Assembly: GCA_964631145.1 (NCBI GenBank)
Contig: CAZVXT010000001.1
Coordinates: 553,797-617,796 of the forward strand
Reading direction: 5' to 3'
DNA from: an uncultured Candidatus Saccharibacteria bacterium
GTDB lineage: Bacteria; Patescibacteriota; Doudnabacteria; UBA920
DNA length: 64,000 nt
Position numbers and translations under genes: made by a program. This document shows, one piece after another, positions 5,609-39,959 of this stretch. How positions within the stretch are numbered: the stretch's first letter is position 1; every line of letters begins with the position of its first letter. The notes beneath the pieces were generated by a model that was given only the letters and a program-made list of their open reading frames with translations, did no database searches and was not told the origin of the DNA.

Positions 5609-7070
5609 ATAGCCAAGGATGAGAGAATAGCTTGGCAGTTACAAAGAGTTTAAGTAGAGTTCTAGTTACAGTAATTGCACTAAACATAGAAATTAAGATA
5701 CCGATAGACAAAGTTACAGCAAAACCTTTAATTGATGGGGTACCAAATAAATATAAGATTATAGTTGTAATTAAACTCGATACATTTGAATCTCTAATAG
5801 ACATCCATGCTCTAGCAAATCCATCCTCAATAGCCTTTGGAACGTCTTTGCCAGCACGCAATTCTTCTTTCATACGTTCGAAGATCAAAATATTAGCGTC
5901 TACTGCCATACCGACTGACAAAATGAATCCTGCAATACCAGCCAATGTTAAGGTTACGGGAGCTAATGCACCATTGATTAACATCAAAACCAAATAACTA
6001 AGCAGTGCCATTAAGCCAAAATACCAGCTCACTGTAATTCCTAATAAGAAGAATGCGCCAACTAAGACTACTGCAGTTACCGAAATACCAATTTTAAAGA
6101 TCGCAATAGACATTAATACATACAAAAGCAATGCGGCAACAGCAAGTAATCCTGGAAATCTATAGAAAAAGACCATAAAGAGGGCAACCAATAACAAGCC
6201 TATCAATCCAGCAATAATAGATTTTTGGATTGACTCTTTACCTAAAGTTGCACCAACATTTTGCTGGGAGATTAATTTAATCGGTACTGGCAATGCACCA
6301 GAATTTAAGCGGGTAGCAAATAATTTTGCTTCTTCAGGAGTAAAGTTTCCAGAAACAATAGCTTCGCCATTAGTAATTGCAGTTTGTACAGTTGGAGCAC
6401 TAATTATTTGACCATCCAAAATAATTGCAATTGGCTTTCCAATATTTGCTTTTGTTAAATCAGAAAATAATTGGGTACCTTCATCATCAAATTGCAATTT
6501 TACTACAATTTCTGAAGCTAATTGGCTTTTGCCAGAACTTTGCGCTTCTGCAATTGCCTTCTTCAAATTTTTACCTGATAATTTTGTAGGTATCCAGGCA
6601 GACAAAGGATCTATAACAACTTTTCCATCCGGACCAACTGTTGCATCCTGTGGCTTATTAGGGTCACCTTGAGTTCTAAATTCTAATAAAGGAGTTTGCC
6701 CTATTTGATCAATGGCTTTGTTAATATCAGTAATACCTGGAAGTTCTACAACAATCTGGTCAGTACCTTGTGTTTGAACTACTGGTTCGGATACTCCAAA
6801 ACTATTAACACGACGCTCAACAGTATCTCGAGCCGCTTGCAAGGCTTCACGCTTATCCCCTTCAGCAATATCTTTAAAATCAGCTTGATATACAAGATGT
6901 GCGCCACCTTGCAAATCCAAGCCTAAATGTATACCATATTGCTTGTTAAAATTGATTTTTAGCTTTCTTAAGTCAATTTTACTGCCGCCTGGCCAAACAA
7001 TCCATGCAGTAGCCAGCCCTAAAAGGACTATAAAGACAAAAAGTACTACTCTTTTGTAAAATGCTTTCAT
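5580..7070 (-). CDS. secD: Protein translocase subunit SecD
   Basis: LGLDLQGG motif, periplasmic domain plus C-terminal TM bundle; overlaps secF start. Confidence 0.85.
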   Translation of the reverse strand: MKAFYKRVVLFVFIVLLGLATAWIVWPGGSKIDLRKLKINFNKQYGIHLGLDLQGGAHLVYQADFKDIAEGDKREALQAARDTVERRVNSFGVSEPVVQTQGTDQIVVELPGITDINKAIDQIGQTPLLEFRTQGDPNKPQDATVGPDGKVVIDPLSAWIPTKLSGKNLKKAIAEAQSSGKSQLASEIVVKLQFDDEGTQLFSDLTKANIGKPIAIILDGQIISAPTVQTAITNGEAIVSGNFTPEEAKLFATRLNSGALPVPIKLISQQNVGATLGKESIQKSIIAGLIGLLLVALFMVFFYRFPGLLAVAALLLYVLMSIAIFKIGISVTAVVLVGAFFLLGITVSWYFGLMALLSYLVLMLINGALAPVTLTLAGIAGFILSVGMAVDANILIFERMKEELRAGKDVPKAIEDGFARAWMSIRDSNVSSLITTIILYLFGTPSIKGFAVTLSIGILISMFSAITVTRTLLKLFVTAKLFSHPWLFGIKIKDNK

Positions 7071-33299: not shown

Positions 33300-33959
33300 C
33301 TATAGTATGGTTAATAAATCTTTTAAGTTTGTAATAGTACAATCCACCTCATTACTTTCAATAAGCCCATCTTCATTTTTGTACCAAATAGTTTTCATTC
33401 CTAACAATCGCGCTGGAAGCAATCCTCTTTCTACATTATCATCAATCATTATAGAAGTATCAAATTCCGCCCCAACTCCAGACAAAACAGTTTTAAAAAT
33501 TTCAGGATTAGGTTTATCAACTCCTAAATGTCCTGACATATCGGCTGTATGCAAAAATTGCAATAGCCCTGCAGATTCTAATTTATTTTTTGCGACAACA
33601 GACTGATTGGCAATGATACCTAGTTTATATTTTTTAGATAATTGTTGCAAGGTCTCAAATGCTTCCATCCTTATAGGTTGGTCGTAATATTGTGGGGCGT
33701 TTGTATAAGAAGACTTTAAATCAAGCAAGGCATTTTCAATATTATTAGAATTTACAAATATTTTTATAACATTTTCATCCAAAGATCCATCCATAGCACT
33801 TGCCCTCTTCCATTGTTGCTTAATATCATCCATGGTCAGATTAAAAGAATATTTTTGAATTATAGATAAATCATTTTTTTGTCTCCAATTCAAAAAACTA
33901 GATTCGTCTATTAATACTCCCCCGACATCAAAAAATAACCATTTAATACTTTCAAACAT
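33300..33959 (-). CDS. HAD-superfamily hydrolase
   Basis: Motif I FFDVGGVL, motif III/IV …MIDDN. Confidence 0.65.
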   Translation of the reverse strand: MFESIKWLFFDVGGVLIDESSFLNWRQKNDLSIIQKYSFNLTMDDIKQQWKRASAMDGSLDENVIKIFVNSNNIENALLDLKSSYTNAPQYYDQPIRMEAFETLQQLSKKYKLGIIANQSVVAKNKLESAGLLQFLHTADMSGHLGVDKPNPEIFKTVLSGVGAEFDTSIMIDDNVERGLLPARLLGMKTIWYKNEDGLIESNEVDCTITNLKDLLTIL

Positions 33960-34659: not shown

Positions 34660-34986
34660 ATGAAAACTATTATCCACATCGACGATGATGAAACTTGGAG
34701 AAATTGGGTTGCTTATATTTTAGATAAAGCTGGGTATAAGCTATCATCTTTTAATAACATTAAAGATGCTAATGATTTTATATCTCAAAATGATATTTCT
34801 TTGGTGATCACAGATGGCAACATTGAGTCTGATAATGATGGTTATATTTTGGCAAAAGACTTGTATGAAAGTAAAAATAATGTTTTGCTTTTATCTGGTA
34901 AACACTACGAAAATATACCATTAATAAAAAAACTAGGATTTAATGAAAATAGTTTTTTGCAAATAGTTAAAAACATAATAGAATGA
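34660..34986 (+). CDS. Single-domain response-regulator receiver (CheY-like), orphan
   Basis: GGAGG RBS; IIHIDDDE acidic pocket, LVITDGNIESDNDG phospho-Asp region, LLLSGK. Confidence 0.45.
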   Translation: MKTIIHIDDDETWRNWVAYILDKAGYKLSSFNNIKDANDFISQNDISLVITDGNIESDNDGYILAKDLYESKNNVLLLSGKHYENIPLIKKLGFNENSFLQIVKNIIE

Positions 34987-35345: not shown

Positions 35346-35378
35346 TAAGGCGATAAATTTTATCGCCTTTTTATTTTA
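35346..35378. terminator. Bidirectional intrinsic terminator
   Basis: aggcgata-aattt-tatcgcct hairpin with flanking A/T runs. Confidence 0.6.
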
Positions 35379-35984
35379 TACAACTATTTTTAAAATATCT
35401 AAAGAAATTAAATCGATTCTTAATTGTTCTGCACTTTTATATAATAACGGCATATACCCAATTTTATCTGCACCTCTCAAAGATTGTGGAGAATCGTCAA
35501 TAAAAACTAATTCAGAAGGAGAAACTCCCAATTTATCAAATAACACTTGATAAGCTTGTGGATCGGGTTTTTGAAAACCAATTTCTGCAGATATCAAAAA
35601 AGTATCAAAGTGTTTATCCAAACCTTCTTCCTTTAAAAAAATTCCATTGCTACGAGTATTATTACTTAATAAACCGACTTTTAGTCCAGATTGCTTTAGT
35701 TTCTCTACTATATCAATTACTTGTTGGTTTATTTCCGCTTTACCATTTTCAACTAAATAATCTACAACATTTTTAAAATATTGTTCTTTATTAATTTGCT
35801 TAAGAATAATCTCCCACAATTCCCTATAAGAAATATCTCCTAGATTTGATAACTTGTTATGCTCAAAATAAACCGATTTTAAATCGTCTAAAGGAAAATT
35901 AATTATGCGTGAAATATCAGGAATCATCGGTTTGTGCATACTAATTACTCCCCCATAATCAAATCCCACAGCTTTTATATTCAT
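35376..35984 (-). CDS. HAD-superfamily hydrolase (beta-phosphoglucomutase-like)
   Basis: Motif I VGFDYGGVI, GLLSNN, FIDDS. Confidence 0.65.
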   Translation of the reverse strand: MNIKAVGFDYGGVISMHKPMIPDISRIINFPLDDLKSVYFEHNKLSNLGDISYRELWEIILKQINKEQYFKNVVDYLVENGKAEINQQVIDIVEKLKQSGLKVGLLSNNTRSNGIFLKEEGLDKHFDTFLISAEIGFQKPDPQAYQVLFDKLGVSPSELVFIDDSPQSLRGADKIGYMPLLYKSAEQLRIDLISLDILKIVV

Positions 35985-36785: not shown

Positions 36786-37616
36786 TCAAAAAGTTTGCAA
36801 AGTTATTCTTGCATCAAGATTTGGAGTGCGAGATATAGATTTCTTTCTTTGATTCTGCCTTTTTATCTTTGTGCGTAAATACTTGGCAATTTTTTTATTA
36901 TATTCATCTATATTATTCTTATAATCAAATGTCCAAAAGAGATTATCAAGAATTTTGCCATGCCTTGCGGCAATTTTTGCCGAAGTTAATTTACTGGTGC
37001 AAAATTTGCCATTTACCGTAAAACGCATACATTTGGACCTCTTATCAAACCTAAGTCCGGGCTTATCAAAGACAAAACCGAACGTTAAGTTATTCCAATT
37101 CTCTTTCCAAACAGCATGGTCATAAGGAATATGTAAATCGAAAAAGAACATAACTATTACTTCGACAACATAACCCGGCCACCCACATTCGGCAGCGCCA
37201 TATGGTGTAATCATTCCAAAATTTTTATTCCTACCTAATATTTTTTTAAATGCTGGCAAAGCCGCTGTCGAGTTATAAGCAGCATTAACAAAGTGTATCG
37301 GGTAAGAATATTTGCCTAGTAATTTTGCCAAATCTACATAAGTAATAACACGAAATTGTTCTTCAACGGTAAAAGTCCATCCTTCCGAATTTCCATAACC
37401 CATATAGATCAGCATTAATGGCTCATCTGGTTTTTGTAATTCCAATCTTTGTTCAAGCTGTTTAATAATTTCTTGAGTATCCAAACTCCCTAAGATGACG
37501 TAAATGTCTTCTTCGTTTAAGTTTGTATGCTCAGTCAGTTTGTCTTTTGTTCTTATAGCCGCATTAGGTAGCATATCTTTACTATCTATGCCGCCAATAA
37601 TAATCGCTTTAGACAT
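36786..37616 (-). CDS. Hypothetical protein
   Basis: 276-aa ORF with TAGGAGG RBS; no confident domain. Confidence 0.45.
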   Translation of the reverse strand: MSKAIIIGGIDSKDMLPNAAIRTKDKLTEHTNLNEEDIYVILGSLDTQEIIKQLEQRLELQKPDEPLMLIYMGYGNSEGWTFTVEEQFRVITYVDLAKLLGKYSYPIHFVNAAYNSTAALPAFKKILGRNKNFGMITPYGAAECGWPGYVVEVIVMFFFDLHIPYDHAVWKENWNNLTFGFVFDKPGLRFDKRSKCMRFTVNGKFCTSKLTSAKIAARHGKILDNLFWTFDYKNNIDEYNKKIAKYLRTKIKRQNQRKKSISRTPNLDARITLQTF

Positions 37617-37776
37617 ATTTTTCCTCCTAATATATTCAAAATATTCTTTTAAAGAACAGATTATTATAGCGAATATTTAAGGGCTTGTCAAAGCATGGAG
37701 AATTTATACGGATGAATTAAAGTAAATATTTATTATTAAATAAATACCAATACAAAAAAATCGCTATGAAGGCGAT

Positions 37777-37977
37777 TTAATGTGCGGCTCTCAACTTTGC
37801 TGCTTTTTCAACAACCTTTCTTTGATCTCTGTTTGCTTCCTTTACCACCTTTTCTATGACTTTTTTCTTATAAGACGATGAGGCATCATGAGAGAACCTA
37901 GAAAATTTGCTTTGCTTTATTTTATTTACCTTACCGCTAGTACCAAATATTTTATTTAAAAAATCCATCATATTCAT
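37777..37977 (-). CDS. Small basic protein (66 aa), translationally coupled to zeta-like kinase
   Basis: ATGA overlap with upstream gene; K/R-rich helical sequence. Confidence 0.4.
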   Translation of the reverse strand: MNMMDFLNKIFGTSGKVNKIKQSKFSRFSHDASSSYKKKVIEKVVKEANRDQRKVVEKAAKLRAAH

Positions 37978-38675
37978 TCGATTAATTTTCTAAGCTCGTC
38001 TTCATTATAAAAAATGTCTAGATGATTGTCAATATTTTCAATATCTAATCTTGTCTTACCAATATCATTATCATAATCTTTAATTACTAAATTTAACCTG
38101 ATTTGATGTCCAAAATCATTTTTTAACTTATTGACATTATTTTTTGAGGAGACAAAACCATTAATAAAAGCATCTTTTGTAATGTTTCTTCCTTCTAATA
38201 ATTCTCGATCTTGTGTGAACTTCCAAGCTATTATCGGATCCTGATACAAATAATATATTTCAATATAATTTCTGTATCGTAAACTTAACTCAATATTAGA
38301 TTTAGCAACAACGTAATTTGCCATTGTACCATCCAATACAAAGTTTTGATTATTTTTTAAAACAAAGTTATAAATTTCTGAAACACCAATACTTATTGCA
38401 TTTTGAAATAAATAAGCATTTGTACCATTATATATTTCAGAGGGCAAAGTATTTCTAATTTCATCCGGATCAATTCTCACCACACCATCACCTAGTTCTT
38501 TAATCAAATCTTTTGAAAATTCAGTTTTACCTGCACCTGGTGAACCAGCCATAAATACTGAAGCTGGCTTATCATCCGGTAAATAAATTTTTACATTAGC
38601 AAATTTATTAATTAAATCGTTTTTAGACTTACGAATATGTTTCGCTGCTTGCTTAGATAATTCTTCATCTTTCAT
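37974..38675 (-). CDS. Zeta-toxin-like P-loop kinase family protein
   Basis: VFMAGSPGAGKTEFSK Walker A, downstream RIDPDEIR and VLDGTM resembling PF06414; start moved to MKDEEL (38675) because the longer ORF overlaps tRNA-Trp. Confidence 0.5.
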   Translation of the reverse strand: MKDEELSKQAAKHIRKSKNDLINKFANVKIYLPDDKPASVFMAGSPGAGKTEFSKDLIKELGDGVVRIDPDEIRNTLPSEIYNGTNAYLFQNAISIGVSEIYNFVLKNNQNFVLDGTMANYVVAKSNIELSLRYRNYIEIYYLYQDPIIAWKFTQDRELLEGRNITKDAFINGFVSSKNNVNKLKNDFGHQIRLNLVIKDYDNDIGKTRLDIENIDNHLDIFYNEDELRKLIE

Positions 38676-38716
38676 AAACTCATCATAACAAAAAACCGCC
38701 TTCACGGCGATTTTTG

Positions 38717-38790
38717 TGGCAGGGGCTGTAGGAATCGAACCTACGCAAATGGTTTTGGAGACCATTGTACTACCATTATACGAAGCCCCC
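38717..38790 (-). tRNA. tRNA-Trp (anticodon CCA)
   Basis: Cloverleaf: GGGGGCT acceptor, anticodon loop CTCCAAA, T-arm GTAGGTTCGATTCCTAC, CCA encoded. Confidence 0.85.
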
Positions 38791-38842
38791 TGGTTTTTTA
38801 ATTATATCAAACAGCCCTTCCGAACTCGAAAGGGCCAATTGA

Positions 38843-38998
38843 TTACTTAGTTTCTTTATGCAAAGTTTGCTTGCGGCAACGGTTGCAATATTTCTTGATT
38901 TCTAGTCTGGCTTGAGTGTTCTTTTTATTCTTACGAGTTGCGTAATTTAAATTGTGACACTCAGTACATTCCATATCAATACGACGGTCTTGTGACAT
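38843..38998 (-). CDS. rpmG: 50S ribosomal protein L33
   Basis: [51 protein letters not shown]; CxxC…CxxC zinc ribbon; below ORF-track size cut-off. Confidence 0.8.
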
Positions 38999-39461: not shown

Positions 39462-39959
39462 ATGAATTTTATTGATAATTTTTTAGATAAAATATTTGAT
39501 CAGTTAGCTTTGCAAGCCAGCAATGCCAAACTAATCTTAAAACAGTTTTCTGCCAAAAATCTTGGTATTATTTGTGGAGGCAAAAACCCAAATTTTGATC
39601 AAGATCCAAAGCATCGCATTGTTGGCGTATGGACATATTGTTCAAACTGCAAATGGTTTGGTTTTACAGACGTAATAGACCCATGGTCATACAATAGTCA
39701 TTCTGATTGCGAAAATTGCTATGCCAGAATAGATTATTCGCCCAGACAAATTTTTGGTTTTAGCCTAGCTTACATAAACATGAAGCACCAAATTTTGTCC
39801 CAAAGACCAAGCAACAAAAACAAGTTAATGACCTTTGCAAAATGTTTATGGCAAAGCAGAACCACAGAAGAAATTCCTGAGCATCAAGAAGGCAAAACAT
39901 GGTCAGAATTAGAAAGAGACGCTGTATTAAAAATTAGCGTGGCGTGGCTACTTCAATAA
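39462..39959 (+). CDS. Hypothetical Cys-rich protein
   Basis: TAGGAGG RBS; CSNCKWFGF…CENCY zinc-ribbon-like pairs; opposite orientation to flanking tRNA genes. Confidence 0.45.
   Translation: MNFIDNFLDKIFDQLALQASNAKLILKQFSAKNLGIICGGKNPNFDQDPKHRIVGVWTYCSNCKWFGFTDVIDPWSYNSHSDCENCYARIDYSPRQIFGFSLAYINMKHQILSQRPSNKNKLMTFAKCLWQSRTTEEIPEHQEGKTWSELERDAVLKISVAWLLQ

Follow-up and report, generated by a model that had tools for sequence, protein, structure and literature searches.

The stretch of DNA analysed here, referred to below as the window, comprises 64,000 nucleotides (nt) of contig CAZVXT010000001.1 (assembly GCA_964631145.1, positions 553,797 to 617,796 of the forward strand) from an uncultured Candidatus Saccharibacteria bacterium which GTDB places among the Doudnabacteria. 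On its minus strand it carries a two-gene cassette: a Zeta_toxin-family P-loop kinase of 233 amino acids (37974-38675), the putative toxin, followed by an overlapping gene for a small, basic, helical partner of 66 amino acids (37777-37977), the putative antitoxin. The best-supported reading of this pair is a toxin-first, type II-like toxin-antitoxin (TA) cassette in which the antitoxin is transcribed separately, a reading to which we would assign a probability of about 0.6. It draws on the family and fold of the kinase, the conservation of its catalytic residues and of its partner, the co-divergence and exclusive linkage of the two genes, the constraint on two promoter hexamers which lie within the kinase codons, and the lack of any conserved third gene.

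The small partner protein

The initial annotation of this region, made from the sequence alone, described a lysine- and arginine-rich open reading frame (ORF) of 66 codons overlapping the stop codon of the kinase gene in an ATGA. That description was confirmed: the ORF begins at the ATG of the ATGA which includes the kinase stop codon, and its product contains 26% lysine plus arginine and has a pI of 10.4. When this lone sequence was used as a query it matched only itself, and no Pfam family recognised it, both of which would suit a chance ORF in AT-rich DNA lying beside an orphan zeta toxin.

The DNA just past the kinase stop codon was examined in 80 fetched loci which carry relatives of the kinase (40-56% identity) and which come from many lineages of Patescibacteria, from Gammaproteobacteria, Betaproteobacteria and Bacteroidota, and from others (individual loci are cited by L numbers). 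In 76 of these a homologous ORF of 47-73 amino acids is present within a few bases of the kinase stop, mostly in an ATGA overlap. L003 and L023 likewise carry a partner ORF that was seen by eye, giving approximately 78 of 79 checkable loci, L038 having been left out of the count because it runs off its contig. The exception is L079, in which the kinase gene is followed by a 37-residue ORF that is possibly frameshifted. The pair is thus conserved in relatives; neither a lack of conservation of the small ORF nor a grouping of the kinase with housekeeping kinases was found.

An alignment of 77 partner proteins has a glutamine (Q52 in the window protein) as its sole invariant residue and yields the motif F[SF]xF..[AS]S..EKKK....k[AS]NxDQxxL. 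The profile of this alignment retrieved 176 proteins from a word-indexed database, each of which is called 'hypothetical' and lacks a Pfam domain. From the window protein and matches to the first profile a second was made, which in an exhaustive search retrieved 838 cluster representatives, nearly all of them free-standing and 42-77 amino acids long. Recovery of the family required a profile derived from the genomic neighbours; the single sequence did not suffice. Homologous ORFs at the same position across phyla, an invariant glutamine within a recognisable motif, and the family members returned by both profiles leave a chance ORF with virtually no likelihood; on this comparative evidence the small ORF is a real conserved partner of the kinase, far beyond chance.

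No match to the partner was found in Pfam, NCBIfam, PADLOC or PHROGs, its profile matched nothing in the PDB, and Foldseek, run with the partner model, returned nothing similar. A weak match to AbiEi (E 0.006) was judged to be noise. The AlphaFold2 (AF2) model of the partner, with a predicted local distance difference test score (pLDDT) of 83.5, has, from the N-terminus onwards, a short helix, a disordered linker of basic character, another short helix that spans FSxF, and a long helix bearing NxDQ.

The partner might instead be an omega-like DNA- or RNA-binding regulator which represses transcription or translation of the kinase and does not bind the kinase protein. The pI of the family (median 10, and above 9 in 97% of its members) and the basic, disordered linker at the N-terminal side of the protein are both in keeping with this. 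Such a regulator is nevertheless decidedly improbable, since the AF2 model contains no helix-turn-helix (HTH) or ribbon-helix-helix (RHH) architecture, no DNA-binding family in Pfam or the PDB was matched, there is no conserved upstream operator or promoter on which it could act, and the tight co-divergence with the kinase described below better fits a protein-protein partner. The idea that the partner is a phospho-acceptor substrate of the kinase was dropped because its only invariant residue is a glutamine, with no invariant serine, threonine or tyrosine.

A subclade of the partners (L008, L027, L029 and L045, also L004, L035, L056, L059 and L063) has a Cys-rich C-terminal tail, for example ...CQFCDCK and ...CCQCCGCK, and many other partners have a single cysteine near the C-terminus. 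The tail, which is not found in the window partner, may be a metal-binding or degradation-tag element.

Putative promoter within the kinase gene

A promoter scan revealed a perfect match to the sigma-70 promoter consensus, TTGACA-17-TATAAT (38032-38004, minus strand; 12/12), within codons 215-224 of the kinase gene, the -10 hexamer ending 26 nt before the ATG of the small ORF. In every locus the -35 hexamer runs from the second base of codon 215 through codon 216 to the first base of codon 217, and the codon alignment places the -10 hexamer at codons 223-224. The 17-nt spacer occupies the same codons in 78/78 loci, though residues 217-222 vary. Hexamers at these codons score at least 10/12 in 59 of the 78 loci, and a match of at least 10/12 is present within the 85 nt before the small ORF in 57/77 cases, against 0/154 for control windows inside kinase genes.

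At codons 215, 216 and 224 the choice among synonymous codons strongly favours the promoter consensus. Codon 215 has T as its last base in 72/78 loci (background 0.43; p 7e-20), Asp216 is specified by GAC in 50/75 (background 0.29; p 2e-11) and Thr224 by ACT in 38/41 (background 0.27; p 7e-19). Conservation by position is T 1.0, T 0.92, G 0.99, A 1.0, C 0.65 and A 0.72 for the -35 hexamer (TTGACA), and T 1.0, A 0.96, T 0.74, A 0.85, A 0.28 and T 0.91 for the -10 hexamer (TATAAT), which matches the information profile of sigma-70 sites. This pattern suggests that the embedded site is a dedicated promoter of the small gene. The site, which the initial annotation had not noted, tells more about the pair than any other feature.

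A comparable site does not precede the kinase. In 72 loci no strong promoter was found in the 145 nt before the kinase start, the best match being 10/12 (once) and the mode 8, and the minus strand of the window has no promoter-like site between 38979 and 38032. An intrinsic-terminator-like hairpin with A-tract, GC stem and U-tract (38687-38713, minus strand; terminator scan; fold -12.3 kcal/mol, z -3.2) lies directly 3' of the tRNA-Trp gene which precedes the cassette in the window, and, because the kinase ATG is only ~12-14 nt past its U-run, the kinase gene has no space for a promoter of its own. The partner would then be transcribed strongly and independently, and the kinase would rely on weak or read-through transcription.

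Near-consensus promoters also occur elsewhere in the window, which has six perfect sigma-70 matches (TTGACA-16/17-TATAAT) vs 0.3 expected from shuffles, and 17 matches of at least 11/12 vs 5.8 expected. Several other perfect or 11/12 matches stand 24-47 nt before ORF starts, e.g. that at 37691-37663, and the low-GC source genome seems to use unusually near-consensus promoters.

The kinase

The initial annotation had assigned the larger gene product to the P-loop kinases of the zeta-toxin fold, and both a profile search and a structural comparison bear this out. Against Pfam Zeta_toxin (PF06414; cut-off 22.3 bits) it scored 111.6 bits (E 4.3e-32), the match spanning positions 9-180 of the 199 in the profile; the kinase was matched by none of the curated models in NCBIfam or PADLOC. 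A homologue search with the kinase returned 2389 clusters, of which the named ones are mainly from Patescibacteria and annotated 'zeta toxin family protein', and there are at least 575 kinase loci among GTDB species genomes. The start was placed at the ATG at 38675, giving a protein of 233 residues, because an alignment to 32 homologues supports that codon. The public gene call (P0001) and the mechanical ORF list give a protein of 263 residues starting at 38765, within the tRNA-Trp gene; judged by the alignment, the 30 extra N-terminal residues of P0001 (38676-38765) are a mis-annotation.

Invariant in 33 aligned kinases are the Walker A motif GSPGAGKTE (residues 44-52, including K50), the RIDxD motif (D69 and D71; RIDPD in the window kinase), the DGT motif (D115 and T117), and R157, E158 and R163. 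The best match in a profile search of the PDB was PezT (8e-7), followed by Pnkp1, gonococcal zeta1 (Ng zeta1) and zeta. In the alignment to PezT, K50 corresponds to K45, D71 to the catalytic base D66 (D67 in zeta) and T117 to the threonine of the GT motif. The AF2 model of the kinase (pLDDT 93.4) was compared with the PDB using Foldseek, and the top eight matches were all PezT and zeta chains, with E-values of 6e-10 to 1e-8 and template modelling (TM) scores of 0.6-0.73. AvrRxo1 and gonococcal zeta1 came next at ~1e-5, and polynucleotide kinases after those. Sequence identity to PezT and zeta is ~16-18%. By its sequence and its model, the kinase is a genuine zeta-superfamily kinase with its catalytic residues intact.

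Linkage, mobility and decay

All-versus-all clustering of the ORFs from the 80 loci and the window left the kinase alone as a shared family, the next neighbour family being present in 5 loci. Scanning 145 immediate neighbours against Pfam gave matches to 145 different families, and no conserved third gene or upstream regulator was found across the 80 loci. The commonest neighbour class is that of restriction-modification and conflict genes, with ResIII and SWI2_SNF2 at 4 loci each, MmeI and Type ISP at 2 each, and AEP-TOTE at 1; the loci with such neighbours (L001, L018, L023 and others) still make up <10% of the total.

The pair is present on the Shewanella putrefaciens plasmid pSA70-4, where it adjoins integrase genes and the annotation calls the partner a hypothetical protein. 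An IMG/VR viral contig carries the pair as well, beside a tape-measure-like and an M23-peptidase-like protein. One Doudnabacteria metagenome-assembled genome (MAG) carries two copies of the cassette (L024 and L038). The kinase genes of L003 and L031 are each broken by a single in-frame stop, their partner ORFs being intact; in L003 the stop (~4150) falls directly after the P-loop (GAGKT), and in L031 it is at ~4528. L085 has an orphan partner gene (6001-6192), 67% identical to that of the window and with no kinase remnant nearby. This orphan follows an NYN-domain gene and precedes an unrelated 273-residue ORF and recJ.

Pairwise distances among the kinases and among the partners are correlated (mirror-tree r = 0.70, Mantel p 0.001), and divergence is faster in the partner (p-distance 0.70 vs 0.54 in the kinase). 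Linkage, variable context, decay and a fast-evolving partner are classic population-genetic signatures of TA systems and argue against a housekeeping enzyme. To judge from the loci compared, the pair behaves as an autonomous, mobile two-gene cassette.

Toxin-antitoxin interpretation

Generic features of type II systems are present in the pair, namely a compact two-gene cassette, exclusive linkage, variable context, association with mobile elements, a faster-evolving partner, decayed kinases and an orphan partner. Three options had been raised in the initial annotation: a non-canonical TA pair, an abortive-infection-like pair, and a small-molecule kinase with a chaperone. The comparative evidence favours the first of these, because of the variable context, the plasmid and viral copies, the nonsense codons in kinase genes, the orphan partner and the rate at which the partner evolves.

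As a TA cassette the pair might operate in the following manner. The kinase, with its zeta/PezT fold, would poison the cell by ATP-dependent phosphorylation of a nucleotide-containing metabolite, for which UDP-N-acetylglucosamine (UDP-GlcNAc, or UNAG) and NAD are precedents, and the basic, all-helical partner of ~60 amino acids would bind and block the kinase as a stoichiometric inhibitor. An excess of partner could be reached by two routes: the ATGA overlap would couple its translation to that of the kinase on a bicistronic message, and the near-consensus sigma-70 promoter within the final 60 nt of the kinase ORF would supply a transcript of its own. The window kinase itself would be transcribed only via read-through of the tRNA-Trp terminator. 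Should the partner be the less stable of the two proteins, the kinase would be set free when the cassette was lost or transcription was blocked.

Several points weigh against this interpretation. The toxicity of the kinase, its binding and physical neutralisation by the partner, the activity of the promoter, the substrate and the biological role are all inferred. The profile of the partner picked up none of the epsilon, PezA, ng_epsilon1 and Arc1 chains in the PDB (E<=10), no PADLOC model matches the pair, and so strongly basic a protein could equally suit nucleic-acid binding. About 10 of the 78 loci, mostly from Gammaproteobacteria, together with the Shewanella plasmid copy, are without a good embedded promoter, and the nonsense codons in MAG kinases could be assembly errors or genuine inactivation of the toxin. 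Finally, Arg120 of zeta, the arginine of EGTLR in PezT, aligns to Ala119 of the window kinase, in a column which is A, S, F or V family-wide. In zeta this residue contacts the UDP phosphates of the UDP-GlcNAc substrate (PMC3062530). Because the UDP-phosphate-binding arginine is not conserved, the UNAG-kinase mechanism is not simply transferable, and from the alignment UDP-GlcNAc cannot be assumed to be the substrate.

The absence of this arginine would also suit a non-toxic small-molecule or polynucleotide kinase, for which the partner would serve as a regulatory subunit, chaperone or specificity factor in an accessory metabolic or repair module. Weaker fold and sequence matches to polynucleotide kinases and PSTK, and the great abundance of the family in Patescibacteria (2389 matches), point the same way. 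We consider this unlikely, given that toxins (PezT, zeta, AvrRxo1 and Ng zeta1) make up all the top fold and sequence matches, that no conserved operon partner or pathway context exists, that the cassette is found on mobile elements and in duplicate, with nonsense-inactivated kinases and an orphan partner, and that the asymmetry in promoter strength favours the partner.

A role in anti-phage abortive infection is a functional refinement of the TA reading and compatible with it: the kinase would be freed when host transcription stops and the partner, on this view a short-lived protein, decays. Restriction-modification and conflict genes head the list of immediate-neighbour families, the cassette is found on a viral contig and a plasmid, and a partner expressed from a separate strong promoter would sense transcription shut-off. 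However, only ~5-8% of the loci adjoin defence genes, most neighbours are housekeeping genes, and there is no PADLOC match, which leaves this role possible, if on the unlikely side.

Relation to known systems

With the epsilon/zeta and PezA/PezT systems (Streptococcus; PDB 1GVN, 3Q8X and 2P5T) the window kinase shares its fold and Pfam family, and it keeps the Walker A lysine, the catalytic aspartate (D71) and the threonine of the (E/D)GT motif. Like epsilon, the partner is small and helical and has no recognisable DNA-binding domain. Unlike these systems, the cassette has the reverse gene order, with the partner downstream and a tRNA gene and terminator upstream; the partner is unrelated in sequence to epsilon (PF08998) or PezA, Arg120 of zeta is not conserved, and in place of an omega or HTH autoregulator there is an embedded, constitutive-looking promoter. 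No epsilon or PezA-type gene lies upstream; the initial annotation had already remarked on the lack of an epsilon-type antitoxin there. The pair falls outside epsilon/zeta-PezAT as defined because its antitoxin is not upstream, the partner is unrelated, and the UNAG-binding arginine is missing.

A downstream antitoxin for a zeta-fold kinase is known from AvrRxo1:Arc1, for which toxin pseudogenes with arc1 intact have also been described (PMC4938570). As in this Xanthomonas system (PDB 4Z8U), the gene for a zeta-fold kinase is followed on the same strand by that for a small helical partner, and some kinases are inactivated with the partner intact (here L003 and L031). AvrRxo1 differs from the window kinase in its size (~420 amino acids), its type III secretion N-terminus and its activity as an NAD kinase, and it is a second-tier fold match (E 1e-5 vs 6e-10 for PezT). 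Arc1 has 81-121 amino acids and the motif KExFD(x25-27)(Y/L)ExxYY (PMC4938570). The partner family, in contrast, has 47-73 amino acids in the loci examined and no KExFD motif, and its profile misses the Arc1 PDB chains. With a kinase from another clade and a partner that lacks the Arc1 motif, the pair is not an AvrRxo1:Arc1 module.

Among toxin-first type II systems, higBA has antitoxin-specific promoters, and in mqsRA those of mqsA are situated inside the mqsR coding sequence. Antitoxin-specific promoters drive constitutive expression of mqsA, uncoupled from that of mqsR (PMC6918082). The window cassette resembles mqsRA in having the toxin gene first, and here sequence constraint points to a dedicated antitoxin promoter. 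The protein families are unrelated to those of mqsRA and higBA, which comprise RNase toxins and HTH or zinc-finger DNA-binding antitoxins.

Pairs in which a Zeta_toxin kinase has a partner other than epsilon or PezA include the non-canonical PezAT pair Rv0366c-Rv0367c of M. tuberculosis and the ParD_like.Zeta_toxin pairs of TASmania (PMC6362051, PMC6504116). In those the ParD-like antitoxin is upstream, whereas the window has a downstream partner of no described family. TASmania gives HTH_3, ParD_like and Phage_integrase as partners of Zeta_toxin, with the partner gene first in the named pairs (PMC6504116), and a 2023 survey of PezAT reported many 'orphan' zeta toxins, their partners having been sought among upstream genes only (PMC10532202). 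The present results show that one large zeta clade has a conserved partner downstream, where that survey looked only upstream. No description of a downstream partner or an embedded promoter was found in the literature, the coverage of which is incomplete, so that an earlier description is possible; nothing was found for COG4185.

Few TA toxins hit the metabolism of the cell wall or of nucleotides; zeta and PezT kinases are among them, and they attract interest as antibacterial leads. Somewhat short of even odds, we tentatively suggest that the pair represents a large undescribed cross-phylum TA family, possibly one of abortive infection, in which a new class of antitoxin of ~60 amino acids restrains a zeta-fold kinase and is expressed from a promoter within the toxin codons, from Patescibacteria to Gammaproteobacteria. 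Were this true, some of the 'orphan' zeta toxins left by upstream-only surveys would be explained, and the pair would be the main zeta-type system of candidate-phyla-radiation bacteria, acting on a substrate that may differ from UDP-GlcNAc. The 838 cluster representatives define a new candidate antitoxin family. Few recognisable modules of conflict or addiction abound in the reduced genomes of Patescibacteria, and the cassette is among them. The embedded site is a clear case of overlapping constraints, a putative promoter being encoded within conserved codons across phyla, and it offers a simple model for how a toxin-first module might keep its antitoxin in excess with no autoregulatory DNA-binding domain.

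Genomic surroundings

The tRNA-Trp (CCA) gene occupies 38717-38790 on the minus strand (ARAGORN; Rfam tRNA 65.6 bits) and belongs to the upstream context, outside the cassette. Its distance from the kinase ATG, given as 40 nt in the initial annotation, was measured as 41 nt. The range assigned to the pair at that time, 37777-38795, does contain both genes; its upper bound is too high and takes in the tRNA gene, because the mechanical ORF from 38765 runs into it. Upstream of the tRNA gene is rpmG (38843-38998, minus strand; Pfam Ribosomal_L33, E 1.9e-19), 3' of which RNA folding indicated a strong hairpin of -20.2 kcal/mol.

The pair had been viewed as inserted after tRNA-Trp in the place of secE-nusG. 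This framing found no support, because no att-like direct repeats of tRNA-Trp were found and adjacency to a tRNA gene is not a feature of the family. Of 60 other loci, no more than 4 have a tRNA gene immediately beside the pair, with different tRNAs, and tRNA adjacency was rejected as a family trait on these grounds. The GC content of the cassette is like that of its surroundings. Close relatives without the pair were sought by an exact look-up of the window L33 protein, which returned only the same genome.

In three loci tRNA-Trp is near the cassette and not adjacent to it, at ~1-3.5 kb (L030, 3799-3870; L043, 3999-4070; L057, 8120-8193), more often than one would expect of a single-copy tRNA. 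Two of these loci are closely related, the tRNA is on the opposite strand in two, and its position differs from that in the window.

At its downstream end the cassette is closed by a terminator-like hairpin with a U-run (37751-37778, minus strand; terminator scan; fold -11 kcal/mol, z -2.6), the stem of which overlaps the stop codon of the small ORF. Beyond it is a run of accessory genes for HAD hydrolases, a methyltransferase, MarR and DUF218. The next downstream gene (36786-37616, minus strand) specifies a protein of 276 amino acids with no family match except a faint one to Peptidase_C25 (E 0.05); it has a perfect TTGACA-17-TATAAT of its own, the site at 37691-37663 mentioned above, and is not kept beside the cassette elsewhere. 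Further along are two paralogous-looking HAD-family hydrolase genes (35376-35984 and 33300-33959, minus strand), and between them a response regulator consisting of a receiver domain only (34660-34986, plus strand).

On the other side of the cassette, a Cys- and Trp-rich ORF of 165 amino acids with no Pfam match (39462-39959, plus strand) lies between a tRNA-Thr/Tyr pair and the tRNA-Thr-rpmG-tRNA-Trp group, and breaks a tRNA/ribosomal-protein cluster that is usually compact.

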